DNA from: Chloroflexota bacterium
GTDB lineage: Bacteria; Chloroflexota; Dehalococcoidia; Lucifugimonadales; UBA3495
Direction of reading: 5' to 3'
NCBI GenBank assembly: GCA_028875655.1
Contig: JAPPCX010000039.1
Span: forward strand, 30,392 to 94,391
DNA length: 64,000 bases
Part shown: one piece after another, positions 26,816 through 62,097 of the stretch
Numbering within the stretch: the first letter of the stretch is position 1
How the letters are laid out: every line of letters starts with the position of its first letter
The notes under the pieces: model-generated
What the model was told of the DNA's origin: nothing
What the model saw: only the letters and a program-made list of their open reading frames with translations
The model's database searches: none
Made by a program: the position numbers and the translations under genes

Positions 26816-26884
26816 CCTGGATTCCCGCTTTCGCGGGAATGACGGTAGTGTGGGCGGGAATGACGGTGGGGAGCGGAATTACCC
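26816..26884. repeat. REP-like element family A: hairpin head GGATTCCCGCTTTCGCGGGAATGACGG + 2 tail units
   Basis: Stem ATTCCCGC/GCGGGAAT with loop TTTC, followed by GGGAATGACGG and GGAATTACC repeats at about 20-nt spacing. Confidence 0.85.
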
Positions 26885-31137: not shown

Positions 31138-31192
31138 CCGGATTCCCGCCTTCGCGGGAATGACAGTGAGGGGGCTGGACTGACGGGAATTA
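31138..31192. repeat. REP-like element family A
   Basis: CCGGATTCCCGCCTTCGCGGGAATGACAG plus tail unit GACGGGAAT, between the ileS stop and the mutM start. Confidence 0.8.
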
Positions 31193-41156: not shown

Positions 41157-43136
41157 ATGAGAAGGAAACGAGCATTTCGATGGCCGATAATTCTCGCCGC
41201 GGCAACCACGCTGGCCGCAATATTCCTTGTCGGGTGCGGCGGAGCTGCTGAAGAATCCGCTCCGTCGCAACCGGTCAGCGCGCCGGCGGCGGCCCAAACC
41301 GCGCCCACGGCGGCCCCGGCTCCCCAGCAGCAACAGCCGCAGGCAGCAGCAGCCACCGCGACCGTAGCCCCTCCGCCGGCGACCTCAGCCCCAACGCGCC
41401 CCTCGTTCGTCGGTACCACTCCGGTTGCTCAGCCCCAACCCACGGTTGCAGCCGCAGCCAATGAGGGCGAACTCAAGACCAATGACCTCGTCTTCCTGTT
41501 CTCGCAGCAGACCCGCCAGGGCATCATGGACTGCGACGTAACGGGGAGCGCCACGAGCCAACACCGACCGTCTCATGAGTTCCTGATCGACGCCAACCGT
41601 TATGACGGATCCCTGGAACCTCAATTGGCGACCGACTGGAGTGTCAGCGACGACGGGAGGACGTGGAACTTCAAACTGCGCGAGGGAGTCAACTTCCATT
41701 TCGGGTACGGAGAATTCACGGCTCACGACATTGTCAACTCGCTGAATTACTACACCAATCCCGTGTGTGGCGCGTCCTACTCGGACTACTTCCGCACTAA
41801 CCCGCAGGCGCTGCCGGAAGTCATCAGCGACTATGAGATCAATATCACGATGGGCGCTCGCCCCGAGTTGATCTTCGACTATTGGATCTCCGGCTACCGC
41901 GGTCTCCCTATGAGCAGCAAAGCCCAATGGGACACCGGTTGCCCCAACGGAGCGGCGGATTACGAGTCGTTCGCGGAAGTGCCTCACCTGGAAGGATATT
42001 GCTCGGCCGGCGAGCCAGCCCTGCTCGAAGAAGGCCCGGCCCGTCTCGGGCCCTACCAGTTCGCCAATTTCGAGAAGGGCATTGGCTGGCTATGGGAACG
42101 CGCTCCCGGTGAACACTACCGCGTTACTCCCGACTGGGATACCATTGAAATCAAGATCATCGAGGAGGCGTCCACCCGCCTGGCGGCCATGCTGGCTCGT
42201 GAGGCCCATCTGGCCACGATCGACCGGGCGCTGGTCGGTGAAGCGCTGGACGCTGGTCTGGATCTTGCGCCCAGCCAGGTGGTTGCCGTCAACAGCATGA
42301 TGGTCTTCGGCGGTATGTACTACGCTACCAAGGAAGGGCCTGAGTTCGAGCCCTACTCCGCCGCATCCTACGACCCCACCGTTCCGTGGGCAGCGCCGGG
42401 CGATGCTGGCAAGATGGTCCGCATGGCGATGAACAAGGCCATCGACCGCGACGCCATCAGAGAAAACCTCTTTGACGGTCAGGGCGCCGAGGGCCGCGTC
42501 GCCGGCCTGATCCCCAGCGCCGAAGCGTTCGGTGGCGAGTACGCGGGATACAATCCGGAATGGGAAAGTTCCTGGGAAGAGCTCTACGGCTTCGACCCAG
42601 AACGGGCCCGGGAACTCCTGGCAGAGGCCGGCTATCCCAACGGGTTCAACGTACCGATCATCAGCTACACCATGAGCGGCCTGCCTGAGATGAAGGACTA
42701 CGTGGTGGCAATAGCCGGCATGTGGGAGAACATCGGCCTGACCACGGAGATTCGCGAGATGGAATTCTCGCAGTGGCGGCAGGAATATCGTGGCGCGACC
42801 ACCAACTGCTGCATCTATCCCTTCCGGGGTTACGCCGAGCCGCCCCACCCCACGATTCACTTCGCATACAGCCCGGAACGGTTCATGCGGTTCTACGTCA
42901 GCGATACCGTTTGGCAAAACACCTTCAACGCCCTGAACTCCCTCAACTTCGAGGAGCAGTTGGGCTACTGGCACGCGGCTACGGACGAACTATTCTACGA
43001 GGTGGCGTCGATCCCGTTGCATACGCTGTCGGTGCAGGTGGTGATCGACCCGGAGGTGGTTGAGGAGTACATTTACCTCGGCCCCTACGGCGGACAATTC
43101 ACCGACCTGGAACACATCAAGGGCGTCCGTTACTGA
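41157..43136 (+). CDS. ABC transporter substrate-binding lipoprotein, family 5, copy 2
   Basis: Paralog of 36921-38909, with lipobox LVGC, PAQ linker and WSVSDDGRTWNFKLREGVNFH. AAGGAGG SD. Confidence 0.85.
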   Translation: MRRKRAFRWPIILAAATTLAAIFLVGCGGAAEESAPSQPVSAPAAAQTAPTAAPAPQQQQPQAAAATATVAPPPATSAPTRPSFVGTTPVAQPQPTVAAAANEGELKTNDLVFLFSQQTRQGIMDCDVTGSATSQHRPSHEFLIDANRYDGSLEPQLATDWSVSDDGRTWNFKLREGVNFHFGYGEFTAHDIVNSLNYYTNPVCGASYSDYFRTNPQALPEVISDYEINITMGARPELIFDYWISGYRGLPMSSKAQWDTGCPNGAADYESFAEVPHLEGYCSAGEPALLEEGPARLGPYQFANFEKGIGWLWERAPGEHYRVTPDWDTIEIKIIEEASTRLAAMLAREAHLATIDRALVGEALDAGLDLAPSQVVAVNSMMVFGGMYYATKEGPEFEPYSAASYDPTVPWAAPGDAGKMVRMAMNKAIDRDAIRENLFDGQGAEGRVAGLIPSAEAFGGEYAGYNPEWESSWEELYGFDPERARELLAEAGYPNGFNVPIISYTMSGLPEMKDYVVAIAGMWENIGLTTEIREMEFSQWRQEYRGATTNCCIYPFRGYAEPPHPTIHFAYSPERFMRFYVSDTVWQNTFNALNSLNFEEQLGYWHAATDELFYEVASIPLHTLSVQVVIDPEVVEEYIYLGPYGGQFTDLEHIKGVRY

Positions 43137-43179
43137 CCACATCGGTCAAACGAAGAGCGTCAACTTAGGGAGTTCCGTT

Positions 43180-43214
43180 CTCCGGCGTCGACTCGGTTTG
43201 AGTCGACGCCGGAG
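43180..43214 (+). other. 15-bp perfect-stem hairpin after SBP copy 2 (no T-run)
   Basis: CTCCGGCGTCGACTC-GGTTT-GAGTCGACGCCGGAG, 44 nt after the stop. Likely an mRNA-stabilising or attenuating structure inside the operon. Confidence 0.6.
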
Positions 43215-43251
43215 CAACCGACCTTAACAGGGAAAAAGGAACGGACCGGAC

Positions 43252-44172
43252 ATGCAGGCATACATATTGAGGCGAGTCGTTCAGGGAATTTTGGCGATCT
43301 TCGTAATCTGCACGGTGACCTTTGCGTTGGCCCGCGTTTCCGGCGACCCGCTTAACGTCCTTTTGCCGGAAGAGGCCTCCGAAGAGCAGATAGAGTTGAT
43401 CAAGGCCGAATGGGGTCTGGATAAACCCCTACACATGCAATATCTCCAGTACCTCGGAAAATTGTTCCGGGGCGATCTGGGCGAAGCGATCGCGTGGCCC
43501 AATTCCACCGCGACTGAACTGATAGTGCAGCGGCTGCCAAACACCATAAAGTTGTCCGCCCTTGCGCTCATCGTCAGCGGCGTGATCGCGTTTCCGGTGG
43601 GCGTCCTGGTCGCCATCAAGAAAGACACGCCCTTCGACTATGGTGGCAAATTGTTCGCCATCCTCGGGCAGTCTGCGCCCACCTTCGCCGTCGGGTTGAT
43701 ACTGATGTGGATATTCGCCGTCCAGTTGAATATTTTCCCAACTTCAGGCAGCGGAGGAATCGAATACATTATCCTCCCTGCCCTGGCGTTGGGGTATTAC
43801 AACGTGGCGGCTCTGATGCGCCTGACCCGTTCATCAATGTTGGAAGTCCTCGACACCGAGTATGTAAAGCTGGCTCGAATCAAAGGCGTGCCCGAGTGGA
43901 AAGTCGTCTGGAAACACTGCTTCCGGAACGCCTTGATCGTCCCTCTCACATACTTTGGACTTATCGGCGCGGTACTCATCACCGGATCGGTGGTGATCGA
44001 AACGGTGTTTGCATGGCCTGGACTGGGACACCTGGTTATCAAGGCCATCCTGTTCCGAGACTACGTGGTGGTGCAGGCGGTGGTCCTGTTGTTTGCCACC
44101 GCGTTCGTCATCATCAACATCATGGTGGACGTGTTGTACGCGTATATTGACCCACGGATCCGGTACACATAG
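43252..44172 (+). CDS. ABC transporter permease (DppB/OppB-like), copy 2
   Basis: Colinear paralog of 39025-39942. Confidence 0.85.
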   Translation: MQAYILRRVVQGILAIFVICTVTFALARVSGDPLNVLLPEEASEEQIELIKAEWGLDKPLHMQYLQYLGKLFRGDLGEAIAWPNSTATELIVQRLPNTIKLSALALIVSGVIAFPVGVLVAIKKDTPFDYGGKLFAILGQSAPTFAVGLILMWIFAVQLNIFPTSGSGGIEYIILPALALGYYNVAALMRLTRSSMLEVLDTEYVKLARIKGVPEWKVVWKHCFRNALIVPLTYFGLIGAVLITGSVVIETVFAWPGLGHLVIKAILFRDYVVVQAVVLLFATAFVIINIMVDVLYAYIDPRIRYT

Positions 44173-44230
44173 GTAGGTCCGAAAACTGCTGCGGACAGCG
44201 CCAGGCGTGCGGCAATGAACGAGGTGTGAA

Positions 44231-45316
44231 ATGGCAGCCGTCACTACTAGCCCAGAGGTAACCGGGGTCGATACTCAGCAGCGCGCTGGTCGGGTCGCGA
44301 AAGTGGTCCGGGCGATCCGCGAACTGCCGCTCATACCCTTGGTCGTGCTCATATTCCTGCTGGTGATTCCCGCGATCTTCGCGAATCAACTGGCGCCTCA
44401 CAACCAGCGCATCGGCGTACTGGACGACGCGAAGCTGCCGCCCTTCTGGGTATCCGAAAGCTTCGAGTCGCGGACGGTGGTGCAGCGCGCGGACAAGGAT
44501 CGCCTGGATGTTGAGATTGGCCTCACCAATGCGCAGCGCAAGGTGGAACGCGGCGAAGCCACTATCCTGAGCGGAGGTGAAGACGGGACGGTCGATCCCG
44601 GTGATACCCTCCGGTTCCAGGCCAACAAGGGCGGGTCCATGGAGTATCCGTTGGGTACCGACAAGCAAGGCCGCGACATCCTGAGCCGGATCATGCACGG
44701 CGCCCGCATTTCGTTGATGGTCTCTTCGCTGGCTATTCTGCTTGGCGGGGGTCTGGGAACCCTGCTCGGGATGATGGCCGCCTACCGGGGCGGCAAGACC
44801 GATGCGATCATCATGCGCATCGTTGACATCAAGCTGGCGTTCCCGTCAATCCTGCTGGCGCTGGTGCTGGTGGCCGCGATCGGGGCCGGGTTCACCACCG
44901 TCATCGTCGTGATCGCGGTGTTGCTGTGGGCCCGTTACGCTCGCGTGGTACGCGGCGAAGCGTTGGCGATCAAGCAACAGGACTTCATCGACCGGGCCCG
45001 GGTTTCCGGAGCGTCAAACGCGCGAATAATGATGCGGCACATCTTCCCCAACCTGGTCAATACAGTGGTAGTATTGGCTACCCTGGAGGTGGGCCACGTT
45101 ATAATCCTGGAATCTACTCTCAGCTTCCTGGGCGCCGGCATTCCGGCCCCCACCCCGGCATGGGGAGTCATGGTAGCCGATGGCAGGGACCTGATTACCA
45201 CCGCATGGTGGATTTTCCTGTTCCCTTGCCTAGCCATCGTGCTTACGGTACTCTCTATGAACCTGCTGGGAGACTGGCTGAGGGATAAACTGGACCCCAA
45301 ATTGAGGAACGTTTAA
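44231..45316 (+). CDS. ABC transporter permease (DppC/OppC-like), copy 2
   Basis: Colinear paralog of 39967-41052. The C-terminal ~60 aa are nearly identical. Confidence 0.85.
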   Translation: MAAVTTSPEVTGVDTQQRAGRVAKVVRAIRELPLIPLVVLIFLLVIPAIFANQLAPHNQRIGVLDDAKLPPFWVSESFESRTVVQRADKDRLDVEIGLTNAQRKVERGEATILSGGEDGTVDPGDTLRFQANKGGSMEYPLGTDKQGRDILSRIMHGARISLMVSSLAILLGGGLGTLLGMMAAYRGGKTDAIIMRIVDIKLAFPSILLALVLVAAIGAGFTTVIVVIAVLLWARYARVVRGEALAIKQQDFIDRARVSGASNARIMMRHIFPNLVNTVVVLATLEVGHVIILESTLSFLGAGIPAPTPAWGVMVADGRDLITTAWWIFLFPCLAIVLTVLSMNLLGDWLRDKLDPKLRNV

Positions 45317-45319
45317 GCC

Positions 45320-46363
45320 ATGACAGCTGTACAGACCGCCACAGACACCATCCTCGAGGTCAATGACCTCAAAACGTACATCTTCACCCGCGCCGCCACC
45401 GTGAAAGCGGTGGACGGCATCTCGTTCAACCTGCGCAAGGGTGAAACCCTGGGCATTGTCGGGGAATCGGGTTGCGGCAAAACGATGACGGCCCTTTCGT
45501 TACTGCGGCTGGTGCCCAAGCCGGCCGGGCGAATAGTTGAGGGGGAAATCGTTCTCAACGGAGAGGACATTCTGCAGAAGAGTGAAGACGAAATGCGCGA
45601 CGTGCGCGGCCGTCAGATCTCCATGATTCTCCAGGACCCGCAGACTTCCCTGAACCCGGTATTCACCATCGGGAACCAGCTGCGGGAGGCCCTGGGCATA
45701 GCCCACCGGGAAAACAAGAGCTCCATGCTGTCGCGGGCCGTTGACGCACTGCGCAAGGTGAACGTGGCCGCGCCGGAACGCCGCCTGGACGACTACCCGC
45801 ACCAGATGTCGGGCGGCATGAAGCAGCGCGTCGTCGGCGCCATTGCCATGTCGTGCGAACCCGGCGTTATCATTGCGGACGAGCCAACCACCGCATTGGA
45901 CGTCACCATCCAGTTGCAGTACCTGCGCCTGCTGAAAGAAATCCAGGCCGAAACCGGGCTGGCCATCATCTTCATCACCCACGACTTTGGAGTGGTGGCC
46001 CGGATGTGCGACCGCGTGGCGGTAATGTACGCGGGGCGCATCATCGAGCAGGGCGACGTGCGTGACATCTTCAGCCGCCCGGCGCATCCTTACACCCAGG
46101 CGCTGATCAATTCGGTTCCCAAACTGGAACAGAGCGTGGACCGGCTGTACTCCATTGACGGCCAGCCGCCGCTGCTCTCCAACCTGCCGGAGGGTTGTCG
46201 GTTTGCGCCGCGTTGCCCGTACGTCAGCGACCAGTGCTACGAAGCCTACCCCTCATCCTACCAACTGGACGAAGGACATCACGCCGACTGCTGGGCCCTG
46301 GACGCCAACTGGCAGGGCACGCCGATTGAGGAATTCGTGCCTCCGACCGGAACCGCAGGATAG
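45320..46363 (+). CDS. ABC transporter ATP-binding protein (DppD/OppD-like)
   Basis: Walker A GESGCGKT, signature MSGGMKQR, Walker B IIADEPTTALD and an oligopeptide C-terminal domain with CRFAPRCP. Confidence 0.9.
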   Translation: MTAVQTATDTILEVNDLKTYIFTRAATVKAVDGISFNLRKGETLGIVGESGCGKTMTALSLLRLVPKPAGRIVEGEIVLNGEDILQKSEDEMRDVRGRQISMILQDPQTSLNPVFTIGNQLREALGIAHRENKSSMLSRAVDALRKVNVAAPERRLDDYPHQMSGGMKQRVVGAIAMSCEPGVIIADEPTTALDVTIQLQYLRLLKEIQAETGLAIIFITHDFGVVARMCDRVAVMYAGRIIEQGDVRDIFSRPAHPYTQALINSVPKLEQSVDRLYSIDGQPPLLSNLPEGCRFAPRCPYVSDQCYEAYPSSYQLDEGHHADCWALDANWQGTPIEEFVPPTGTAG

Positions 46364-46414
46364 CGCCGGTCAAGCCCGTTACAATCTGATTATCTTTGAG
46401 GAGGACTGCTCCCC

Positions 46415-47398
46415 ATGGCAGTGGCTACTAACAACGACGCTCTTCTGGAAGTTCGCAACCTGAAAAAATATTTCCCCGTGACCAAGGGCCTCGTCCTGAT
46501 GAAAACCATCGGGTACGTTCAGGCCGTGGACGGCATTTCGTTCTCGATCAAGCAGGGCGAAACGGTTGGACTGGTCGGCGAATCGGGCTGCGGGAAGACG
46601 ACCACCAGCAAGCTGCTGCTTCGCCTGGAAAATCCCACCGAAGGCGACATTCTGCTGGAAGGCCGAGACATCAACACCTTCCGGGGGGCTGAGCTGCAGG
46701 ACTACCGCACCACGGTGCAGGCCGTGTTCCAGGACCCGTGGTCGTCGCTGAGTCCCCGTATGAGGGTACGCGACATCGTCTCGGAGCCGCTGGTGGTCAA
46801 CCGCAACGTGACCACCCAGGAAAAGAACGAGCGCGTCGCCGAGGTGTTGCAGCAGGTCGGCCTGCACGCTCAGCAGGCTACCAACTATCCGCACGAATTT
46901 AGCGGCGGACAGAGGCAGCGCATCGCAGTAGCGTCCGCACTGGTTTCTTACCCGAAGCTGATCGTACTGGACGAGCCGGTTTCAGCCCTTGACGTGTCGA
47001 TCCGCGCCCAGGTGATGAACCTGCTGAAAGACTTGCAGGAACAGTACAACGTGAGCTACCTGCTCATCGCGCACAACCTGGCTACCGTGCGCTACATGGC
47101 GCACGAGACGGCGGTGATGTACCTGGGTCAGATCGTGGAGTACGCTGAAACGGAAGAGCTGTACAACAACGCGCTCCACCCCTACACGCGTGCGCTGTTC
47201 TCCGCCGCGCTGCCGTCGCATCCGGACCTGATTCGCGAAGACATCGTCCTGCAGGGCGAGGTGCCGTCGCCCATCAACCCGCCGAGCGGCTGCCGTTTCC
47301 ATCCGCGCTGTCCTTTCGCCATGCCCCAATGTTCGGAAGAAGCGCCGGTGGAGAAAGAGGTTTCGCCCGGGCACCGCGTTTCGTGCCATCTGTACTGA
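46415..47398 (+). CDS. ABC transporter ATP-binding protein (DppF/OppF-like)
   Basis: Walker A GESGCGKTT, signature FSGGQRQR, Walker B IVLDEPVSALD, then CRFHPRCP. Confidence 0.9.
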   Translation: MAVATNNDALLEVRNLKKYFPVTKGLVLMKTIGYVQAVDGISFSIKQGETVGLVGESGCGKTTTSKLLLRLENPTEGDILLEGRDINTFRGAELQDYRTTVQAVFQDPWSSLSPRMRVRDIVSEPLVVNRNVTTQEKNERVAEVLQQVGLHAQQATNYPHEFSGGQRQRIAVASALVSYPKLIVLDEPVSALDVSIRAQVMNLLKDLQEQYNVSYLLIAHNLATVRYMAHETAVMYLGQIVEYAETEELYNNALHPYTRALFSAALPSHPDLIREDIVLQGEVPSPINPPSGCRFHPRCPFAMPQCSEEAPVEKEVSPGHRVSCHLY

Positions 47399-47420
47399 CC
47401 GTTTCCGGAAGGCAACAGGA

Positions 47421-47453
47421 AAACCCGCCCCCGAATGTGTGGGCGGGTTTTTT
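47421..47453 (+). terminator. intrinsic terminator of the ABC importer operon
   Basis: AAACCCGCCC-CCGAATGTGT-GGGCGGGTTT followed by a T-run. The stem sequence is related to palindrome family B. Confidence 0.75.
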
Positions 47454-47461
47454 GCTGTACG

Positions 47462-47534
47462 CCTGGATTCCCGCTTTCGCGGGAATGACGGTGAAGGTAA
47501 ACGGAATGACGATCAGCGTAGGCGGAATGACGTG
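47462..47534. repeat. REP-like element family A with two tail units
   Basis: CCTGGATTCCCGCTTTCGCGGGAATGACGG, then CGGAATGACG twice at about 21-nt spacing. Confidence 0.85.
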
Positions 47535-47546
47535 AAAGAACTTGGC

Positions 47547-49310
47547 TCATTTGATGCCGTAGATGTTGCCGTCGTTGGTGCGCACAATCAGCAGTTCGTT
47601 GCTCAGCGTTGGCGGGATTTTTACTGCCGAACTGAGGGAGATTCTCCAGTCCAACGACCCGTCGTGCCGGTCCAGAGAATACAGATTTCCCGAATCGTCC
47701 CCGAAGACTAACCGGTCTTTCACGATCAGCGGCGACGCGTGAATGGCATCATCGGCCGAGAAAGTCCACAGCTCAGAGCCATCGACAGCGTCCAGGGCGT
47801 ACATGTTGTGGTCATAGCCACCTACGTAAAGGACACTGCCGTTGTCGCCGTCGGACAAAGCGGGCGAGCTGAAAATCCCCTGCAGCGGATTTTCCGGCGA
47901 AAAGCGCCACAATCCGCCCTGCTGTCCGGGAGGACGCGGCACCCCCGGCACTTGCCAGAGCCACAATTGCGCCCAGATTTTCTTGAACTGGTACAAACCG
48001 GGGACTTCACGCTCCTCCGCGCTCACCGCGTACAACTGGCCGCTGGACGGGAAATATGCCCGGGTTCCGTCCGCCGAGACCACCGGGGAACCGGCGATGG
48101 TTTTGAGGGTGCGATAGCGAAACCACTCCTGGCCCGTGCGCGCCGAAAGGATATAGAAAATTCCCTTGTCGTCTCCCACAAACAGCCGGCCGTCATAGAT
48201 GGCCACGGAGGCGCTGGCGTTGCTGTCCAGTTGGGTCCGCCAGATTAGCGAACCACTACGGGCGTCCAGGGCGTACAGCCAAGCCTTGCCGGAGCTGATA
48301 TAGACCAGACCGTCGGACACCACCGGGGCGACTTCCACCGTATCTTCGGCCGGGAAACTCCACCAGGCATCGCCATTCAGGGTGCTCCAGGCATTAACGG
48401 TGTGGTCGGTGCTGCCAAAAAAGAGGTATGACTCGACCACCGCGGCCGCTCCGGTGATCCGCCCCGGAGTTGCCCCCTTCCAGCCTTCCCTGATCTGTCC
48501 GTCGTGTTCGGCTATTTTGTAAATGCCATTTGCGGAACCGACATAAGCATTGGCGTGCTGGGCCACCGGTTCGGAATCCAACGGCTCCGGAATGAAACTG
48601 TTCCAGACGACCTCGCCGTCCGGAGGCGGATAGCCGACTTCCATGCTCCTGCTGTTGCGCAGGTCTCGACCGCTGACCGTCCAAACCCCGGGGCCGACGT
48701 CAGCCGTCATCTCAGACTGAATTTTTTTGAGCAGGATCACCGGATTCGGCGCGAACGGGTAGTTCAGCCAGATTACGAACACCAGGAACAAGGAAACCGC
48801 TGCGGAGAAGATGATTCGTTTCCAGGAAATCCGGCTCAACAGCCAGTTGTGCCGGCGATGCTGCGCCCACGCCGGCAGACGGACCACCACCCGAGAGCAT
48901 CGCTGACAGCGCGTGCCAATGCGCTGGTTGGATTGACCGCAGTATGGGCAATCCGACAACAGGCGATCCTCGGCGACAGCGTCATCATCGGGCAGGCGGA
49001 CCTGACCAACGCCCGCCGGGGTTGGCGCCACAGGGGGTGATTCCGCCGAACTTGATCCGACCGGGTTTGATCCAACAGGGTTCGGGCCCACGGGTTCGGC
49101 AACCATGGCGGCGGGAAGCTCAACCATGGGGGCCGGCGCCCCTTCCGAACCGAGAGATAGGGCCTCCTGGCCGGCCGCGACCGGGGGGCCGGCGGGCAGG
49201 TCCGGCATCGGCGCGCTGCCGGCATCGGGCGCTGGGGCAGGCAAAGGAGATCCTTCCTGTTCCCTCAGTCGGCCGGTGATCCGCCGGAGAATGTTGCCGA
49301 AACCTGCCAT
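47547..49310 (-). CDS. zinc-ribbon / TM / PQQ-like (BamB-type) beta-propeller repeat protein
   Basis: Low-complexity N-terminus, CPYCGQSN...CQRCSRVV zinc ribbon, one TM segment (IIFSAAVSLFLVFVIWL), then repeated LYALDA..G...W propeller blades. Confidence 0.7.
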   Translation of the reverse strand: MAGFGNILRRITGRLREQEGSPLPAPAPDAGSAPMPDLPAGPPVAAGQEALSLGSEGAPAPMVELPAAMVAEPVGPNPVGSNPVGSSSAESPPVAPTPAGVGQVRLPDDDAVAEDRLLSDCPYCGQSNQRIGTRCQRCSRVVVRLPAWAQHRRHNWLLSRISWKRIIFSAAVSLFLVFVIWLNYPFAPNPVILLKKIQSEMTADVGPGVWTVSGRDLRNSRSMEVGYPPPDGEVVWNSFIPEPLDSEPVAQHANAYVGSANGIYKIAEHDGQIREGWKGATPGRITGAAAVVESYLFFGSTDHTVNAWSTLNGDAWWSFPAEDTVEVAPVVSDGLVYISSGKAWLYALDARSGSLIWRTQLDSNASASVAIYDGRLFVGDDKGIFYILSARTGQEWFRYRTLKTIAGSPVVSADGTRAYFPSSGQLYAVSAEEREVPGLYQFKKIWAQLWLWQVPGVPRPPGQQGGLWRFSPENPLQGIFSSPALSDGDNGSVLYVGGYDHNMYALDAVDGSELWTFSADDAIHASPLIVKDRLVFGDDSGNLYSLDRHDGSLDWRISLSSAVKIPPTLSNELLIVRTNDGNIYGIK

Positions 49311-49342
49311 TTATCCTGGAACCGTACGATTACCCGGCGAGA

Positions 49343-49392
49343 CCGGATTCCCGCTTTCGCGGGAATGGCGGAAAGGTACGCGGGAATGACGG
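49343..49392. repeat. REP-like element family A
   Basis: CCGGATTCCCGCTTTCGCGGGAATGGCGG plus tail CGGGAATGACGG. Confidence 0.85.
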
Positions 49393-49408
49393 CATTTGCC
49401 CACCAGCC

Positions 49409-49972
49409 CTAGTTGTCCGTCAGTGAGCCGTTGATCAACAGCTTGCGCACGCCCGGCGTGAGTTCGCGGGCGCGCTCCAAAAGTCCATCTCCGCTTACGT
49501 TGGTGATGGGATGCGGGCACATCAGATAGGGGAAGTTTGGAACCCCCATGAGCCGGGTGTAAGCGCGGGCGGTGTTGGCGAAAACGGTCGTGATGATCGT
49601 TGCCGCCGGGATGCCCTGGCGCTCCAAGGTAATTCCGTCGTGCAAACTGCCCGACGAGCAGCCCCCTCAATCACCCACACCCGCGATCACGAAGTCGGCG
49701 TTGCGGTGCAGGTCGGCCATGACTTCAGGAAATGGCGGCAGGGAGGCGCTGTGCTTGGTAACGTGGAAGATGTCGGCAAATTCAAACTCGGCGTCCAGCT
49801 CACGGGCGATGGCCCAGAGGATGGCGTCGGAATTGGCCTTGGAGTTGTCCAGCAGGCCCAGGCGCTTGCCGCGCAGGTCAATCGGCCGCGGAGCCATCAC
49901 CATCGCGGTTTCACCCGGATCAAAGCCGGTGGGGTCAATGAGTTGCACGGTTGGTCGGTTGGCAGTAGTCAT
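49409..49972 (-). CDS. probable selenoprotein (UGSC-family-like), TGA 49667-49669 read as Sec; 187 aa
   Basis: Track ORFs 49667-49972 and 49409-49645 are in the same frame and separated only by one TGA. Read-through gives ...FVIAGVGD-U-GGCSSGSLHDGITLERQGIP... (a U-x-x-C redox motif). A SECIS-like hairpin lies 10 nt downstream of the TGA codon. Confidence 0.6.
49635..49657 (-). promoter_or_regulatory. bacterial SECIS-like stem-loop
   Basis: mRNA UCGUCG-G-GCA-GUU-UGC-A-CGACGG. It starts 10 nt after the UGA codon (nt +13 counting the U of UGA as +1). The apical GUU loop sits at +23 to +25. The upper stem GCAGUUUGCAC resembles E. coli fdhF GCAGGUCUGCAC, whose loop is at +22 to +25. Confidence 0.5.
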
Positions 49973-50007
49973 CGCGGTCTCCTTTGTCCAGCAAGTCGGT
50001 CCGAGTC

Positions 50008-51045
50008 CTAGATCGCCGTGGTCACGGCCGGCACTCCAAAGTAATTCATGATCAGTTCGCTGTAGATGCCGCTGTCGCCGCCGGCCTTGACGATGAGGAT
50101 GTCGTCCGGGCTGTCCACGGTGAGCAGCCTTGCTGCATCATCGCCGTCTTCCACCTCGCCTTTCACCATGCCCAGGCGCTTCAGCTCACCCACGGAACGC
50201 CAGGCCCGCTCGTAGAGGTATTCCTGCATGTCCCGGCGGGTCCAACCCTGGCGGCCCAGCAGTTCCGAATGCCAATGGCCCACAACCCACACCCACTTGA
50301 TGCCTCGGCCAAAGTAGATTCCCAGTCCGTGGGACGCCATCCCGTCGGCGATTGAATCCAGCAGGCTTTCGCCGGTGGAGCCGTAGCGGTTGCCGTGCAT
50401 GGAAGGGTCCTGGATGGTGGCCACCGTAACGGTGGACTGGTCGGGCTGGAAACCGAGGCTGACGTGCATGGGTTCCCAGGGACTGTTCTCCTCGTCCTCG
50501 CCAAAAACCACGCCGAACTTGGTCAGACTGCCCATGCATCCCCGGTCCAGGACGCCCGGCCTCTGCTCAAACACGTTGATGAATATCAGGCGCAGCGCAC
50601 GGCCGATGGTGGAATTGGCCCGGTAGCCCGGGCTGAACAGGTTATCGGTGCAGTTCAACTCGATTTCCCGGCGGATGGGGCCGTTGACGATGGTCAACAA
50701 CCCGGTGGAGTTGGTAACGGCGGATACCTCGTGGATGCAGTTGGGGTCGAAATCGAACAGCGCTTTCATCGTCGCCAGCACCACGGGGAAATAGGCGGGC
50801 AGGCACCCGGCCATGACGGCGTTGGCCGCCGCCTGCTCGGCGGTCAACGTTCGCCGGCGCACCTCAACCTCGCCCAGCAACGTATCGGGCGCCAGGCCGG
50901 CGGCGTCCAGCATGGCCTGGACACGCTCGGCGGTAGGAGGCACCACCGGCAGGCCGTCGGTCCAGCCGCGCCGGTAACACTCCTCGATGGCGTCCAAACT
51001 GTCGGGGTATTCAACTACCGCTGCGCGTTGTGCTTGCTCAACCAT
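50008..51045 (-). CDS. conserved hypothetical protein (345 aa) adjacent to the putative selenoprotein
   Basis: Good coding bias. N-terminus ...CYRRGWTDGLPVVPPT.... No family recognised. The gene ends 35 nt upstream of the selenoprotein start. Confidence 0.6.
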   Translation of the reverse strand: MVEQAQRAAVVEYPDSLDAIEECYRRGWTDGLPVVPPTAERVQAMLDAAGLAPDTLLGEVEVRRRTLTAEQAAANAVMAGCLPAYFPVVLATMKALFDFDPNCIHEVSAVTNSTGLLTIVNGPIRREIELNCTDNLFSPGYRANSTIGRALRLIFINVFEQRPGVLDRGCMGSLTKFGVVFGEDEENSPWEPMHVSLGFQPDQSTVTVATIQDPSMHGNRYGSTGESLLDSIADGMASHGLGIYFGRGIKWVWVVGHWHSELLGRQGWTRRDMQEYLYERAWRSVGELKRLGMVKGEVEDGDDAARLLTVDSPDDILIVKAGGDSGIYSELIMNYFGVPAVTTAI

Positions 51046-51136
51046 TGACGGCTCCTGTGTGCAGACTGGGACACCGCCATTCTACCAATGGCAGCGCATC
51101 AATCTCAACTTGCCCCCGGAGGGAGACGGGGTTTGG

Positions 51137-51958
51137 CTATCGCAGGCCGACTGGACTCCAGGAGACGAGGCAACTGCGAATCGGCTGAGCTCCCTCCAGT
51201 CGCCAGACGCCGTCCTGGTGTTGCAGAGAGCGGTCCAGGAACTGCTCCAGCCGCTGCATCTCCTGGGTGCCGGGCGCCACGTACAGCTGGGAGGCAATGC
51301 CAGCGATGGCCGCCTCCCGGCTGGCGAACCGGAGGGTTGGGCGGTCGGGCAGGTCGGAAATCTTCGGCTGGATGCCCAACTCGTCCAGCACCGGCAGCAG
51401 CTGCGACACGGTGGGCAGCGCGAGCCGTGGCTCGCCGTGCACTACCTGCCAGATGTGATGAACTTGGGACCTGGAAGCCGTCCGCATCATTATCACCAGC
51501 GCCAGGCGCCTGGCATGGTTGTCCAGCTTTCGTACGAACGCTCCGATGTCGTGGATGACGTGGAGCACGTTGCAGCACAGCACCACGTCGGCGGGTTCTG
51601 CGGCCGCGTTCAGCCAATCCGATTCAATCATCGAAACGTTGCGGATGTCGTATTCGTCGGCGGTCTCGCGGAAAACGGCACGCATACTGGGAGACGGCTC
51701 GACGGCGGTGACCGCGCTGCAGGTCAGGGCCAGTGGCAGAGCCAGCCGGCCCCCGCCAGCGCCGACGTCCAGCAGGGTCTCGCCCTCCACCAGGCGAGAA
51801 CGCAACTCCTCGACGACTACATCGTCAGTGCGAAACGGGTCTTCTTTGAAATTGTGGGCCGCAGTCGCCCAGGAATCCGTGGGCCGTTGACCGCGAATAC
51901 GGTCGGACTGCTCGTGCTCTATGCGGACCATTTCGGTCCAAGCTTGTATTGCGCTCAT
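51137..51958 (-). CDS. class I SAM-dependent methyltransferase
   Basis: Motif I LLDVGAGGGRLALPLA. The start is trimmed to ATG 51958, with ATG 51988 as an alternative. The 405-aa track ORF overlaps the upstream gene. Confidence 0.7.
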   Translation of the reverse strand: MSAIQAWTEMVRIEHEQSDRIRGQRPTDSWATAAHNFKEDPFRTDDVVVEELRSRLVEGETLLDVGAGGGRLALPLALTCSAVTAVEPSPSMRAVFRETADEYDIRNVSMIESDWLNAAAEPADVVLCCNVLHVIHDIGAFVRKLDNHARRLALVIMMRTASRSQVHHIWQVVHGEPRLALPTVSQLLPVLDELGIQPKISDLPDRPTLRFASREAAIAGIASQLYVAPGTQEMQRLEQFLDRSLQHQDGVWRLEGAQPIRSCLVSWSPVGLR

Positions 51959-52017
51959 AAAGTTGGCTCCGGTGGGGGTGCTTGGCATGAGTTTACAGGA
52001 TACACGAGTCGGGTGGT

Positions 52018-52656
52018 TCAGCCGGGCAGCGCGGCCGGCAGACTGACCGCCGTCCGGGAACCTGTGGCCAGCAACACCGACGCCGGCGCGTTTTGCATCG
52101 CTCCGGTAACGCGACCGCCGCAAACCTCGTTGAAATCGCAGTCGATTCCCCACCGAGACGCCTGGCGCACCTGCCAGTCTGGCCTCGTCAGGTGATACGC
52201 TTTGACGCCGGCGGCCGGTTTTCCGTTGTAGCCCCAGTATCGACCGGTCAGAAATTCCTCCAGCGAGCCAGGCGTCGTGCTCATCGGCGCTTCGTCTGCC
52301 GAGGCCCAGAATCGCTGACGACGGCCCTTTTCGTCCCAGTGATAGGATACGCAAGCCGGCAGGGCCGCTCCGAAGGAATCACAAGCGTAGAATTCATGCC
52401 CCGTGGGAGCCGTCTCGAACCGCTCCCCGTACATGGCGCGCGCCGCCAAAGCAGTCAGGCGGTGGGGCACAAGCTGGCGGATGAAAACCACGCCGGGTTG
52501 TGGGTCGCCGCTAATCTCAGGCCGGCGCACGTAGAAGCGCAGGTTAATCTCGTCGTAGTTTGAAATCGGGGACGGCAACCCGAAGACCCTTGTGGACTCG
52601 AACCTGAGACCGACCAGGCTGATATAAGCCCGGCCTTGCCAGTGGTCAGTGATCAA
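52018..52656 (-). CDS. DUF2071 domain protein with no canonical start for its conserved N-terminus (possible pseudogene or non-canonical start)
   Basis: The first canonical start is TTG 52656. The frame stays open 37 codons further upstream (ACRRTVIPAALTANWINPLIFSWPVEDAVFEPLLPPG) up to TGA 52768-52770. That stretch looks like the conserved DUF2071 N-terminus but has no ATG/GTG/TTG. Confidence 0.5.
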   Translation of the reverse strand: MITDHWQGRAYISLVGLRFESTRVFGLPSPISNYDEINLRFYVRRPEISGDPQPGVVFIRQLVPHRLTALAARAMYGERFETAPTGHEFYACDSFGAALPACVSYHWDEKGRRQRFWASADEAPMSTTPGSLEEFLTGRYWGYNGKPAAGVKAYHLTRPDWQVRQASRWGIDCDFNEVCGGRVTGAMQNAPASVLLATGSRTAVSLPAALPG

Positions 52657-52787
52657 TCCCGGCGGGAGCAGGGGTTCGAAAACCGCATCTTCAACAGGCC
52701 AGGAAAAGATAAGCGGGTTAATCCAGTTCGCAGTAAGGGCGGCAGGGATAACGGTCCTTCGACAGGCTCAGGACGAGCGGTGTAGGA

Positions 52788-53423
52788 TCAGGATTCGAGT
52801 TGGGCCAGCCGTTGCTCCAGCCGGCGCTGCTGCAAGGAAATGGTCAAGTCGCCACGGGTCCGCTCCAGGACGCCGCGCATGGCGTCGGTGCTGCGCCGCA
52901 ACCCACCCGTGATGGCCTCGGGAAAATCGACGGTGACCAGTATTCCGTAGATTTCATCCATCAATTCCATCAGTTCTTCACACCGCCCGGTGTCATCCCG
53001 GCGCAGCGCGTCCAGAATATAACGCCGCAGTTCGCCGATCACCTCTGCCATGCCGTTCAGGTACGCCGGCGGGTCGATACCCAGCGTCTCCGCATCTGGA
53101 ATCTCGCCCCCGGAAATAACCGCCAACGTGATGTTGGCTTCGGTATATTCCTTGCGCGCGTCGGAGAGGAATCCTGCATAGTAGATTTCGGGGTTGTCGG
53201 TGCGGATGCTGGCCGTCTCGTCCAACTGCTGGGAAGCTTCCGCGATGAGACGCCTGGCCTCGTCAAAATCGTCGCGGTGGACGGCGCGGATGGCATTGGC
53301 CGAGCTGCGGATCACCTGGCGGGACACCGCCAACGCCCGCTCCCGGGCATCGTGCCGAGCGGTCAGTTGCGAGACGGCGTGCTCGGACAACGCTGCCAGG
53401 TGGGGGCCGTATCGGGTTGGCAT
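52788..53423 (-). CDS. translin-family protein (bacterial homolog)
   Basis: 211 aa, helical. YLNGMAEVIGELRRY matches the translin/TRAX signature region. The start is trimmed to ATG 53423 (AAAGGAAA upstream). Confidence 0.55.
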   Translation of the reverse strand: MPTRYGPHLAALSEHAVSQLTARHDARERALAVSRQVIRSSANAIRAVHRDDFDEARRLIAEASQQLDETASIRTDNPEIYYAGFLSDARKEYTEANITLAVISGGEIPDAETLGIDPPAYLNGMAEVIGELRRYILDALRRDDTGRCEELMELMDEIYGILVTVDFPEAITGGLRRSTDAMRGVLERTRGDLTISLQQRRLEQRLAQLES

Positions 53424-53439
53424 GAAATTTCCTTTGGGG

Positions 53440-53500
53440 CTGGATTCCGGCCCCGTATCGAGCACGGGTGACGTTCCTTCGCCGGAATGACGAGGTGGGG
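53440..53500. repeat. REP-like element family A, composite form with nested hairpin
   Basis: CTGGATTCCGGC[CCCGTATCGAGCACGGG]TGACGTTCCTTCGCCGGAATGACG, a near copy of 26900-26970. Confidence 0.8.
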
Positions 53501-54478
53501 TTAGACCCGACCGCCGGCGGCGCGGATGGCCTCGGTGAGCTGAGCTGCTGCGGCTTCGGGGTCGGGGGCGCTGCCCACCGCGGCGGTAACGCAGATGGCG
53601 TCCGCGCCGGCTTCGACGACGGGCGCGACGTTATGGGCGGTGATGCCGCCGATGGCGACCAGCGGCACCTGGGCGGCGGCTCGCGCCTGCTTCAACCGCT
53701 CGGGGCCTTGCGGGGCCCGCGTGACCTGCTTGGTGGTGGTGGTGTACATTGCGCCAAAGGCGACGTGGTCCGCGCCCATCTGCTGGGATTCCACGATCAG
53801 GTCGATCTCGCGGTTGGAGCGGCCAAGCACCTGACCGGGCGAGAGAATCTTGCGAGCCTCGACGACGGGCAGGTCGGTCTGGCCCACGTGCAAGCCGACG
53901 TGATCCGGCCCCAGCGCGGCGGCCAAATCGGCGTGGTCGTTGATGATGAGCAATGCGTCGTTGGCGGCGCAGAGGTCACGGAGAGCGATGCCGAGCGGCA
54001 GTTGCTCGCCCTTGTCCCGCAGCTTGTCGCGGAGTTGCAGCATCCGCGCGCCCCCGTTGACGGCGGCGCGGGCGATGTCCAGCGGATCGCGTCCGCCGGT
54101 GACTTCGGGATCGATGATTACGTAAAGTCCGCGGATGCGCCCGGCTTGGGTTTGACGGAGGGCTGCGCCGATACGGTAAACCGCGTCATCCAGCGCGCGG
54201 TCCAACTGCAACGCCACGTCCGACGGAATCTCGCCGCCGGCTTCCAGCGCCGACAACAAGCCTCTGGCGGCGCTGGCCAGGTTCAAGGCTTCGTTGCGGT
54301 TCTCCGCTCCCTGCCCGGCGGTGGACTCGCGCTGAGGGTCGCTGATACCGTCGCCCAGCCACCCGATTTCGCCCCGCATCAAACCCTCCGGGACGCTGTC
54401 CGACGCCAGCAAGCCGTCGAGGCAGGCGAGCAGGGCGGGCATTAAGTTCGAGCCCGCGGGTTCGCGTGGAGTGGTCAC
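53501..54478 (-). CDS. thiE: thiamine-phosphate synthase with ~110-aa N-terminal extension
   Basis: The C-terminal 210 aa have the ThiE pattern (LYVIIDP, LQLRDK, IINDH, VGLHVGQTD, IGGI). The N-terminal extension is not assignable. Confidence 0.8.
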   Translation of the reverse strand: MTTPREPAGSNLMPALLACLDGLLASDSVPEGLMRGEIGWLGDGISDPQRESTAGQGAENRNEALNLASAARGLLSALEAGGEIPSDVALQLDRALDDAVYRIGAALRQTQAGRIRGLYVIIDPEVTGGRDPLDIARAAVNGGARMLQLRDKLRDKGEQLPLGIALRDLCAANDALLIINDHADLAAALGPDHVGLHVGQTDLPVVEARKILSPGQVLGRSNREIDLIVESQQMGADHVAFGAMYTTTTKQVTRAPQGPERLKQARAAAQVPLVAIGGITAHNVAPVVEAGADAICVTAAVGSAPDPEAAAAQLTEAIRAAGGRV

Positions 54479-54810
54479 AGGTCCAGTCCTTTGGGCGCTT
54501 CGCCGCTGCGGGCCGAGTCGATGGACTGGCGAACTGAGTCCGGCATGTCCACGCCGTGCCTGGCGAACGACTCTTCAACGTGGCGTCCGATGTTTCGAGG
54601 ATCGCTGTAGTAGTCCCGGCTGCGGCTGCCTACGGGGTTTGCCTCATGCACGCCGGAGACGGTTTTGCCCGTGGCGAAGGTGGACATGCGCCGTTCCATC
54701 GTTCCGCTGCCGCACGCCGCGCAGGATGGCGCCACGTGGTTGCTGACGGAGCGCACGAAAACCGACTCGACGGCGCGACATTCCTGGCAGCGATACTCGT
54801 AGATGGGCAT
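54475..54810 (-). CDS. FmdB-family zinc-ribbon protein
   Basis: MPIYEYRCQEC...CAACGS (CxxC...CxxC). Its stop overlaps the thiE start by 4 nt. Confidence 0.75.
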   Translation of the reverse strand: MPIYEYRCQECRAVESVFVRSVSNHVAPSCAACGSGTMERRMSTFATGKTVSGVHEANPVGSRSRDYYSDPRNIGRHVEESFARHGVDMPDSVRQSIDSARSGEAPKGLDL

Positions 54811-62069: not shown

Positions 62070-62097
62070 CTGGATTCCCGCTTTCCCGGGAATGCCG
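62070..62097. repeat. REP-like element family A (head only, degenerate)
   Basis: CTGGATTCCCGCTTTCCCGGGAATGCCG. Confidence 0.7.

Follow-up and report, generated by a model that had tools for sequence, protein, structure and literature searches.

Two ORFs on the minus strand of the contig analysed here (49667..49972, 101 aa, and 49409..49645, 78 aa) lie in a common frame and are separated by a single TGA, and the question is whether they are a broken gene, two genes or one gene whose internal TGA is translated. The contig stretch, 64,000 nucleotides long and called the window below, belongs to a sponge-associated Dehalococcoidia (SAR202-like) bacterium. A preliminary description of the locus had taken the two ORFs for one selenoprotein gene with an fdhF-like SECIS. 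The reading that best explains all the data together, to which we give a probability of about 0.85, is that this is an intact UGSC selenoprotein gene, that its UGA is decoded as selenocysteine (Sec) by means of a SECIS hairpin within the ORF, and that its product is a redox module serving a 345-aa partner protein encoded next to it (Table 1).

Table 1. Positions in the window of the features of the UGSC locus
Feature	Position	Strand	Details
Complete UGSC-family selenoprotein gene (predicted)	49409..49972	-	187 codons; ATG 49972-49970; Sec codon 102; stop TAG 49411-49409; motif U102-G-G-C105
In-frame UGA, predicted to be read as Sec102	49667..49669	-	TGA at the column in 83/83 genome loci and 76/82 metagenome loci (the other 6/82 Cys, TGC or TGT)
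SECIS core hairpin (candidate)	49638..49654	-	nt +16 to +32; UCG-G-GCA / GUU / UGC-A-CGA; loop G23-U24-N25
Extended hairpin as first drawn	49635..49657	-	nt +13 to +35; adds pairs U13-G35, C14-G34, G15-C33
Frozen synonymous block	49634..49660	-	codons +3 to +11 after UGA: TGC TCG TCG GGC AGT TTG CAC GAC GGA
Shine-Dalgarno-like AAGGAG	49979..49984	-	6 nt 5' of the UGSC ATG; read off the sequence
Partner gene, 345 aa	50008..51045	-	ends 35 nt upstream of the UGSC start; invariant Cys81 codon 50805-50803
Sigma-70-like promoter candidate TTGAGA-18-TAGAAT	51079..51108	-	34 nt 5' of the partner ATG; consensus scan 10/12
GAAA-loop hairpin of a repeated intergenic element	49348..49365	-	44 nt beyond the UGSC stop codon; found 7 times in the window, 0 expected
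Sponge metatranscriptome coverage	49226..50853	-	contigs without differences from the window; both the partner/UGSC junction and the UGA are included

A single gene of the UGSC family

Translation of the minus strand from 49972 to 49409 gives one frame of 187 codons with a lone in-frame TGA at 49669-49667, which confirms that the two ORFs are one frame, and the joined frame reads ...ADFVIAGVGD up to the TGA and GGCSSGSLHDGITLERQGIPAATIITTVF... after it, so that the TGA does stand in the U-x-x-C setting that had been pointed out. With U replaced by C for the family-model scans, the joined protein matches the NCBIfam model NF041046 'UGSC family (seleno)protein' with 130.6 bits (cut-off 125, residues 35-179) and Pfam PF24696 with 176.3 bits (cut-off 25, residues 11-179); the family had been named beforehand, and rightly. 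The prediction that gene callers would split the gene was also correct, since on the same contig the public gene calls report one piece of 101 aa and another of 72 or 78 aa, each of which matches PF24696. Moreover, the great majority of the database homologs listed are 'hypothetical protein' fragments of 100-105 aa that stop at ...GD, and the public data searched show the UGSC gene either cut in two or ending early at the UGA. Downstream of the TGA, codon positions 1/2/3 have diverged by 0.22/0.17/0.58, versus 0.22/0.11/0.52 upstream, the amino-acid identity is 0.76 versus 0.74, and there are no further stops 3' of the TGA in 80 orthologs. Judged by this comparison, the region 3' of the TGA evolves as coding sequence.

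The UGSC family contains three motif clades, namely UGGC, to which the window gene belongs, UGAC and UGSC. As in the family at large (NF041046/PF24696, the 'UGSC-containing protein' of Zhang & Gladyshev), the Sec of the window protein falls on the U/C column and is followed by x-x-C, whereas the third motif residue is Gly in the window (U-G-G-C) and Ser in U-G-S-C, which is a clade variant. The family itself is already known and has been catalogued since 2005-2008, so the novelty of the window gene is low; it is an ordinary, mis-annotated member. UGSC is among the approximately five most abundant selenoprotein families in aquatic metagenomes, and no functional characterisation of UGSC proteins was found in the literature on the family. 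In the GOS survey, 255 Sec forms and 21 Cys forms of UGSC were counted (PMC2398784).

Selenocysteine or cysteine at codon 102

The preliminary description had made its proposal depend on homologs aligning Sec or Cys with the TGA. They do: among 165 related loci from several phyla the aligned codon is TGA in 159, and it is TGC or TGT, for Cys, in the other six. The interchange of Sec and Cys at an aligned column is a hallmark of selenoproteins. The full-length Cys forms read GVGDCGACSSGSL, and the relatives as a whole show UGGC, UGAC, UGSC and CGAC/CGSC at the motif column. From this comparison the UGA at codon 102 is predicted to be decoded as selenocysteine. Three other same-frame TGA junctions in the window are not selenoproteins: at 4732(-) the end of an NHL-repeat gene is followed by an unrelated ORF, at 10636(-) there is a pair of Arg-rich shadow frames, and at 58030(+) polA is followed by the next gene.

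A conserved hairpin behind the UGA codon

Counting the U of UGA as +1, the hairpin UCGUCG-G-GCA-GUU-UGC-A-CGACGG is found in the window sequence where it had been placed, at nt +13 to +35 with the loop G23-U24-U25, and its core starts 12 nt past the UGA. The extent first given to it has to be reduced, as only part of it is conserved. All three Sec clades retain the core (nt +16 to +32), while the three lower pairs (nt 13-15 with 33-35) are restricted to the U-G-G-C clade, where 99.8% of the cells are paired and the changes in the extended hairpin are solely G-C to G-U; the U-G-S-C clade is without the lower pairs and has AGC/AGT for the first Ser. In the 111 distinct Sec sequences the six pairs of the core helix are 100% paired; in the loop, G23 and U24 never change and N25 varies freely. 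Nucleotides 19 and 29 form a G.A mismatch in the window and pair as G-U in other clades. At pair 21-27 there are two independent compensatory swaps from C-G to G-C, in L110 and L121, both of them synonymous. The observed covariation score and percentage paired were matched by shuffle controls 0 times out of 500, and RNAalifold recovers the identical core helix. The covariation is limited to this one pair with two events, most pairs never vary, and as support it is thin; within the window's own clade, where the sequence is too invariant, there was none, and the variation came from metagenome loci.

The codons themselves are strongly constrained. The synonymous codon entropy is 0-0.43 bits in the frozen block versus 1.1-2.3 bits in the flanking 4- and 6-fold codons, the third-position divergence is 0.04 versus 0.52-0.58 in the flanks, and the synonymous variation in the hairpin is more than 12-fold below that of the flanking codons. 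Furthermore, the block is present in all 159 TGA forms and degraded in all six Cys forms, which encode the same CSSGS peptide by other codons; 6/6 of them no longer form pair 18-30, and 5/6 lack the GU loop. The conservation of the hairpin in orthologs, another point raised beforehand, is thus borne out for the core, which goes with the Sec forms and is lost in the Cys forms. The MFE fold of the 63 nt after the UGA prefers a competing hairpin (nt 9-29), and its z of -0.87 is not significant; folding by itself is therefore no guide, and the support for the SECIS hairpin comes from the comparative data. A competing hairpin A (nt 10-22) was rejected: two of its five pairs cannot form anywhere in the UGSC clade and are disrupted by the G21 variants, and it leaves the frozen sites at nt 24-36 unexplained; within the UGGC clade it is compatible with the sequences and thermodynamically as good. 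The element was not detected by an RNA-family model: an Rfam 15 scan of 49300-50100 at E <= 10 returned no SECIS family and just chance sRNA matches.

The reference features of the fdhF SECIS are experimentally defined (PMC8659212). The likeness to it, which had been pointed out beforehand, stands in most respects when the window is aligned directly with fdhF of E. coli K-12. Both elements lie within the ORF directly 3' of the UGA, both have a minimal stem-loop of 17 nt (nt 15-31 in fdhF, nt 16-32 in the window), G23 and U24 of the apical loop are at identical positions, and the 3' arm UGCAC at nt 26-30 as well as GCA in the 5' arm are found in both. The main differences are that the loop is GGUC (4 nt) in fdhF and GUU (3 nt) in the window, and that the bulged U17 of fdhF is absent, nt 17 of the window being a paired C and G19.A29 the only irregularity. 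We infer that the hairpin at nt +16 to +32 acts as a bacterial SECIS and would be bound by SelB. In addition, the 17-nt element is compact and near-invariant, and could be a clean search pattern to rescue such genes in MAG annotation.

Selenocysteine machinery and other readings of the TGA

There is no selA, selB, selD or tRNA-Sec in the 64-kb window; a whole-window Rfam scan returned tRNA-Ser only, and a regular-expression search for SelA/SelB/SelD signatures in the window and 1 Mb of loci, which is a crude test, hit IF2 only. In relatives the machinery is found. In locus L075 a tRNA-Sec (ARAGORN; Rfam RF01852, 70.5 bits) is situated some 370 nt away from the UGSC ortholog, and none of the genes around this tRNA encodes Sec machinery. 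The sponge SAR202 genome bin87 has SelA, SelB and SelD in its COG Table S4 (PMC5649159), and this genome (MPNC...) is our locus L020, which carries a TGA ortholog of the window gene. In the lineage of the window, OZ242042.1 has a 97% identical ortholog, and the assembly GCA_026705825.1 contains an identical copy of the partner gene.

If the TGA were a true stop, the locus would be a pseudogene or would give a 101-aa product and a separately started 78-aa product, which is how standard gene callers annotate it, and hundreds of database entries are indeed fragments of 100-101 aa, with no Sec machinery in the window to speak for another decoding. However, the TGA is fixed at one codon in 159 loci of several phyla, the eight codons from it to the supposed second start (GGCSSGSL) encode the most conserved peptide of the family, Cys-form homologs and fusions run continuous through the site, and the downstream divergence is coding-like and free of stops, so that this explanation is effectively refuted. 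Insertion of one of the standard amino acids (Trp, Gly or Cys) at the UGA, whether through a reassigned code or through near-cognate suppression, is also highly improbable. Although one ENA record translates an orthologous TGA as Trp (P0001/L003), and the missing selA, selB, selD and tRNA-Sec in the window would fit as well, TGA is the ordinary stop of 15 of the 39 long genes in the window, the residue at this column in TGA-free homologs is always Cys, the fdhF-like hairpin occurs only together with TGA, and tRNA-Sec and SelA/B/D exist in relatives that have the ortholog. For another RNA- or DNA-level function of the frozen block instead of Sec insertion, such as an attenuator, an sRNA target or a protein-binding site, one could cite the missing match to an Rfam SECIS model, the thin covariation and the equal thermodynamic quality of the nt 10-22 hairpin in the window's clade; but the block follows the TGA and not the peptide, being degraded in Cys forms that encode the same residues, in loop bases and spacing it agrees with the SECIS established by experiment in fdhF, and neither the U-G-S-C clade nor the G21 variants can form the competing hairpin intact, which leaves such a function with very little probability.

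The partner protein

The gene for the 345-aa protein adjoins UGSC in 81 of the 83 genome loci and in 29 of the 30 metagenome loci with enough flank, where it lies upstream or downstream of UGSC, and it is found beside the Cys forms too (E 3e-83). Clustering of all neighbours gave no third conserved neighbour gene; a CCG/Fe-S neighbour of the Cys-form locus L084 occurs in 1/82 loci and is not conserved. Moreover, UGSC is fused to 20 of the 30 long partner relatives, at either end (UGSC-partner and partner-UGSC), and four of the 30 have an AhpC-TSA/Redoxin (thioredoxin-fold) domain with CPTC or CPTS motifs instead of UGSC. One partner fusion is with a ferredoxin:thioredoxin reductase catalytic domain. 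The partner family comprises about 4,900 clusters at 50% identity, and Cys81 is its single invariant Cys (120/120 sequences), alongside about 20 polar residues that are also invariant. The AF2 model of the partner has a pLDDT of 87. Searches against Pfam and NCBIfam gave no family even at E <= 10. Sequence/profile matches to the PDB, 45 residues long and to de novo designed TIM barrels, are spurious, and the best Foldseek matches to the PDB (TM 0.2-0.27; Toblerone-fold hydrolases and class I fumarase) were taken as no match.

With its linkage and its invariant residues, the partner is probably the enzyme served by UGSC, that is, the catalytic subunit. It would probably also correspond to the 'Unknown_1' domain reported in 2008; a UGSC/'Unknown_1' fusion is shown in Figure S1A of the GOS paper of that year (PMC2398784). 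No account of the constant pairing of UGSC with the 345-aa protein was found in the UGSC literature, where only the UGSC/Unknown_1 fusion is mentioned.

Fold of the UGSC protein and proposed redox mechanism

The fold of UGSC was modelled on P0141, a natural Cys form that is 44% identical to the window protein. In the AF2 model (pLDDT 87), strands and helices alternate strictly as (beta-alpha)5 and the Cys caps the N-terminus of the helix that follows strand 3; the top 50 Foldseek matches of the model in the PDB are flavodoxin, WrbA, FMN reductase, TIR and GTPase folds, with no thioredoxin fold among them. Comparison of UGSC with solved structures by sequence found no remote homology. The fold is therefore predicted from the model to be flavodoxin-like, not thioredoxin-like as had been proposed earlier (PMC2398784). 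The redoxin domains (AhpC-TSA/Redoxin, TlpA/ResA-like) that hold the N-terminal place of UGSC in partner-family fusions have CPTC or CPTS where UGSC has U/CxxC or CGAS, and this shared position with such motifs suggests an equivalent role in thiol-disulfide exchange, although the two folds are unrelated (thioredoxin versus flavodoxin-like) and no sequence similarity was detected.

We propose that, like the fdhF element of E. coli, the hairpin would bring SelB and its Sec-tRNA(Sec) to a ribosome halted at the UGA, and that the product would be a (beta-alpha)5 flavodoxin-like protein of about 20 kDa in which Sec102 caps the N-terminus of a helix and Cys105 follows one turn on. This protein would be the redox-active module of a two-protein system, in which the selenolate of Sec102 would attack an oxidised or substrate-bound form of partner Cys81, Cys105 would resolve the mixed Se-S bond to give an intramolecular selenenylsulfide, and the selenenylsulfide would be re-reduced by the disulfide-reducing systems of the cell. 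Linkage, fusion and conserved residues make it likely that UGSC is a selenol/thiol redox module serving the partner enzyme; the contact between Sec102 and Cys81 and the direction of electron flow are what we infer from them. In two-component selenoenzymes a small selenoprotein serves a substrate-binding subunit, for example GrdA with GrdB in glycine reductase. As there, a small Sec/Cys redox protein is encoded here beside a larger, presumably catalytic protein with a seemingly essential Cys, and by this analogy a selenenylsulfide cycle of the GrdA/GrdB type is plausible. Unlike in those systems, the UGSC hosts are for the most part aerobic bacteria of the sea, of soil and of sponges, and no relationship of UGSC or the partner to GrdA, GrdB or PrdB was found in sequence or fold.

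It is also conceivable, though unlikely, that UGSC works alone, as a general thiol oxidoreductase resembling thioredoxin, which was the view in 2008, and that the 345-aa neighbour is a syntenic bystander. The UxxC motif, the Trx-like fold suggested in PMC2398784 and the absence of the neighbour from about one in 30 well-flanked loci would agree with it, but the predicted flavodoxin-like fold, without a thioredoxin in the top 50 PDB matches, does not; nor does it account for a linkage that survives inversion of the gene order and changes of phylum, for the covalent UGSC fusions in both orders among two thirds of the long partner relatives, or for the partner being the only conserved neighbour. 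Going one step beyond the redox module that serves the partner, we somewhat favour the view that UGSC and the 345-aa protein, which has no Pfam family, together make up a single selenoenzyme, widespread but so far unrecognised, with the partner as catalytic half and UGSC as its dedicated selenol/thiol reductant. In such an enzyme UGSC would have been replaced by a thioredoxin-fold redoxin in some lineages, and in others UGSC would be wired to ferredoxin:thioredoxin-reductase-like or CCG-type Fe-S modules. If this is true, it offers a functional handle on a selenoprotein family abundant in aquatic environments, and the pairing and fusion with one enzyme-like family together with the swap between UGSC and redoxin make the function of UGSC accessible to concrete experiments.

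Transcription and possible ends of the operon

The partner/UGSC pair is transcribed in sponge metatranscriptomes. Runs X5, X6, X7 and X10 cover the UGSC/partner region, and the contigs of X5 (49239-49962), X6 (49694-50394) and X7 (49713-50109) show 0 differences to the window. Such contigs are without strand information and can contain DNA, but the depth in the same runs is close to zero at 51078-54800, which argues against DNA carry-over. The TTGAGA-18-TAGAAT element upstream of the partner gene is a putative promoter of the two-gene operon; the consensus scan that found it is weak when taken alone, and the RNA coverage is near zero further upstream. At the other end, the GAAA-loop hairpin behind the UGSC stop, one copy of the repeated intergenic element, may mark the 3' end of the operon.

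A single selenoprotein gene

The ORFs at 49667..49972 (101 aa) and 49409..49645 (78 aa), both on the minus strand, share a frame, and translation of 49972-49409 (-) gives 187 codons in one frame with a single break, ...ADFVIAGVGD*GGCSSGSLHDGITLERQGIPAATIITTVF..., so that the two ORFs are indeed one frame broken by a TGA, as the preliminary description had claimed; every item of its sequence description is present in the window. An AAGGAG motif lies 6 nt 5' of the ATG. The split expected from a gene caller is seen in the public annotation of the contig (101 aa plus 72 or 78 aa), and fragments of 100-105 aa make up nearly all of the best 120 of 436 database homologs.

After replacement of U by C, the joined protein exceeded the curated cut-off of 125 bits for the NCBIfam model NF041046, 'UGSC family (seleno)protein', with a score of 130.6, and matched Pfam PF24696 at 176.3 bits, which confirms the family that had been proposed. 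In the literature, the 'UGSC-containing protein' figures as a predicted selenoprotein without an assigned function; it was first reported from Hyphomonas neptunium and Olavius symbionts (PMC1976440) and ranked among the most abundant families of the GOS survey, with 255 Sec and 21 Cys forms (PMC2398784); reviews of 2022 and 2026 still class it as uncharacterised. Since both models are passed and the family is documented, the kind is already known, and the gene adds a new, mis-annotated U-G-G-C-clade member to a selenoprotein family long on record. The finding is real and its original interpretation correct; we give a probability of about 0.95 to a single selenoprotein gene of the UGSC family. 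The nearest genomic relatives (96-98% amino-acid identity) are in Dehalococcoidia/Chloroflexota MAGs, several being sponge-derived. Further members of the clade are found in SAR202, Candidatus Entotheonella, Binatia and Rokubacteria. Sponge metagenomes contain the exact window sequence.

Features located in the window
Feature	Position	Strand	Remark
In-frame TGA	49669-49667	-	Read from sequence
Partner gene, 345 aa	51045-50008	-	Ends 35 nt before UGSC start
Sigma-70-like site	34 nt upstream of partner ATG		Weak evidence
Intergenic repeat	7103-7120
Intergenic repeat	23460-23477
Intergenic repeat	26822-26839
Intergenic repeat	31143-31160
Intergenic repeat	47468-47485
Intergenic repeat	49348-49365
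Intergenic repeat	62075-62092

Decoding of the UGA

Homologs were to carry Sec or Cys at this column, and they do: TGA stands at the Sec codon in 83/83 genome-derived loci, with the frame running on into conserved sequence, and when the search was widened to metagenomes, 76 more TGA loci and 6 TGC/TGT loci were found, the full-length Cys forms having GVGDCGACSSGSL at the Sec column. At codon positions 1/2/3, orthologs diverge by 0.22/0.17/0.58 on the 3' side of the UGA versus 0.22/0.11/0.52 on the 5' side, amino-acid identity is 0.76 downstream versus 0.74 upstream, and no further stop was found downstream of the UGA in any ortholog. The genetic code is standard, since 15 of the window's 39 ordinary long genes have TGA as their stop codon. 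The sole homolog with Trp at the Sec column, P0001 (locus L003, ENA contig k141_1283860), has TGA as the underlying codon; the Trp arose because the depositor's pipeline translated TGA under another code table, the gene apparently having been called with TGA as Trp. Among the matches listed, P0001 is the only 'full-length' database entry of the Sec clades, with the key residue wrong.

No tRNA-Sec, no recognisable selA, selB or selD and no second selenoprotein gene were found within the 64-kb window. Evidence for the machinery is indirect and comes from relatives. In the Dehalococcoidia MAG contig CBDFGE010000002.1 (L075), ARAGORN found a tRNA-Sec (6921-7017 (-), anticodon TCA; 70.5 bits against Rfam RF01852, gathering score 47) roughly 370 nt 3' of the UGSC ortholog; its flanking genes encode a tRNA U5-methyltransferase, Maf, TatC and a pyridine-nucleotide disulfide oxidoreductase, which are not Sec machinery. 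SelA and SelB are reported to be enriched in sponge-symbiont bins, and SelA, SelB and SelD are listed for 5/5 SAR202 bins (Slaby et al. 2017, Table S4; PMC5649159), including bin87 (MPNC00000000), the source genome of a TGA ortholog (L020).

The hairpin downstream of the UGA

Synonymous entropy falls to 0-0.43 bits in codons +4 to +11 (TCG TCG GGC AGT TTG CAC GAC GGA) versus 1.1-2.3 bits in flanking 4- and 6-fold codons, and third-position divergence is 0.04 there versus 0.52-0.58 elsewhere. The hairpin first described (nt 13-35, counted from the U of UGA) is 99.8% paired in the window's clade, where no covariation was seen because it is nearly invariant. A competing hairpin at nt 10-22 is the MFE solution and fits this clade equally well; it was rejected as 2/5 of its pairs are lost throughout the U-G-S-C clade. 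What the three Sec clades (U-G-G-C, U-G-A-C, U-G-S-C) share is only the core UCGGGCA-GUN-UGCNCGA (nt 16-32).

Across 111 distinct sequences, pairs 16-32, 17-31, 18-30, 20-28, 21-27 and 22-26 are 100% paired, and G23 and U24 of the loop are invariant, N25 being any of the four bases. Pair 21-27 is C-G, replaced by G-C in two separate clades (L110 and L121) with both changes synonymous, and the window's clade has G.A at 19-29, where the others have G-U. RNAalifold recovered the same core helix independently. In the Cys forms, pair 18-30 is broken in 6/6 and the GU loop gone in 5/6, although these forms still encode the identical CSSGS peptide. A single copy of the core sequence is present in the window, and no Rfam model detected the hairpin. 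It is very probably the SECIS. Two loci of different clades, L065 and L114, carry the same double change in the lower stem (G15U and C33U), and the resulting U.U may be a tolerated pair.

The likeness to fdhF was borne out on comparison with the actual E. coli K-12 sequence (reference features from PMC8659212): G23, U24 and the 3' arm UGCAC (nt 26-30) occupy the same positions in both, whereas the loop here is GUU instead of GGUC and the 19/29 irregularity takes the place of the bulged U.

Expression and local context

Four sponge metatranscriptomes yielded contigs that match the window exactly over 49226-50853; one contig covers the entire UGSC gene including the UGA, and three cross the junction with the adjoining partner gene. 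Depth over 51078-54800 is about 0 in the same runs, which argues against DNA carry-over and for transcription. A divergent oligopeptide ABC transporter operon (42000-47400 (+); SBP_bac_5, two permeases, two ATPases), with a depth of 10-35 in sponge metatranscriptomes, keeps its synteny with the pair in around 35 relatives, a linkage specific to the window's clade.

Predicted fold and probable partner enzyme

The fold was modelled on the natural Cys form P0141, 44% identical to the window protein (pLDDT 87, pTM 0.81). The model is a strictly alternating (beta-alpha)5 fold with the Sec-equivalent Cys immediately following strand 3, as the N-cap residue of helix 3. A helix N-cap nucleophile with a second Cys one turn on is the classic redox-active dithiol/selenol-thiol geometry. 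Foldseek against the PDB returned flavodoxin, FMN reductase, WrbA, TIR and GTPase folds (TM 0.4-0.5) and no thioredoxin fold, so the model does not support the older suggestion of a Trx-like fold.

The partner gene is directly upstream of UGSC in 81/83 genome loci and adjoins it in 29/30 metagenome loci whose flanks were long enough, preceding it in the UGGC and UGSC clades and following it in the UGAC clade and the Cys forms; no other neighbour conserved across clades was found. Its product has no Pfam or NCBIfam match, and its AF2 model (pLDDT 87, pTM 0.89) no meaningful PDB match; the family is large, with no fewer than 7,960 word-index hits and, at E <= 1e-3, 4,862 representative clusters. 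In 120 distinct sequences a single Cys is invariant, C81, which is the N-cap residue of a helix and belongs to the motif N-x-V-x-A-G-C-x-P; about 20 polar residues are invariant as well, and together these positions look like an enzyme active site.

Among 30 long representatives of the partner family, 20 carry a UGSC domain, in either order. Several of these fusions begin or end exactly at the Sec column and are thus Sec-type fusions shortened by gene callers. In 4/30 an AhpC-TSA/Redoxin thioredoxin-fold domain (CPTC or CPTS) replaces UGSC, and 1/30 has an extra ferredoxin:thioredoxin-reductase catalytic domain. Because UGSC is here exchanged for a known thiol-disulfide oxidoreductase domain on the same enzyme domain, we regard this replacement as the strongest evidence that UGSC may be the redox module of the partner. 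Variants with one thiol only (CGAS in a fused UGSC, CPTS in redoxins) suggest that the attacking residue is the one at the first position, which is Sec102 in the window protein.

Service of UGSC to the partner enzyme is, in our estimate, reasonably likely. A bicistronic partner-UGSC mRNA would be transcribed, the hairpin at nt 16-32 would recruit SelB.GTP.Sec-tRNA(Sec) at UGA102 for Sec insertion, and the Sec102 selenolate would reduce oxidised or substrate-linked Cys81 of the partner via a mixed Se-S bond, to be resolved by Cys105; the resulting selenenylsulfide would be recycled by cellular disulfide reductases. The gene itself is only moderately interesting; the linkage and fusions with the partner and the non-thioredoxin fold are worth following up.

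The family includes a triple fusion, P0350 (549 aa; C-terminal half of UGSC, partner domain and FeThRed_B ferredoxin:thioredoxin reductase catalytic domain), and tandem-duplicated two-domain proteins of about 710 aa (P0257, P0259, P0261-P0263, P0265). At the Cys-form metagenome locus L084 (2579-3886), a Fer4_8/CCG (heterodisulfide-reductase-like Fe-S) gene is directly upstream of the pair, which fits disulfide-reduction chemistry; found in 1/82 loci, it is not a conserved component.

Intergenic repeat

A REP/MITE-like intergenic repeat has seven copies in the window versus 0 expected; it consists of a doubled CGTCATTCCCGC half-site and, after it, the hairpin TTCCCGC-GAAA-GCGGGAA. The stem of the copy at 7103 is preserved by compensatory changes (CCGGC/GCCGG). 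Two copies were compared with gene ends, and both begin shortly after a stop codon (UGSC and the PQQ-propeller gene); the repeat may be a terminator-like or mobile element. Contig depth over 47340-47873 rises 5- to 20-fold in 4/4 sponge metatranscriptomes, and many contigs pass into unrelated sequence at 47462-47493, exactly at a repeat copy; RNA from many loci or organisms probably contains the repeat in abundance.
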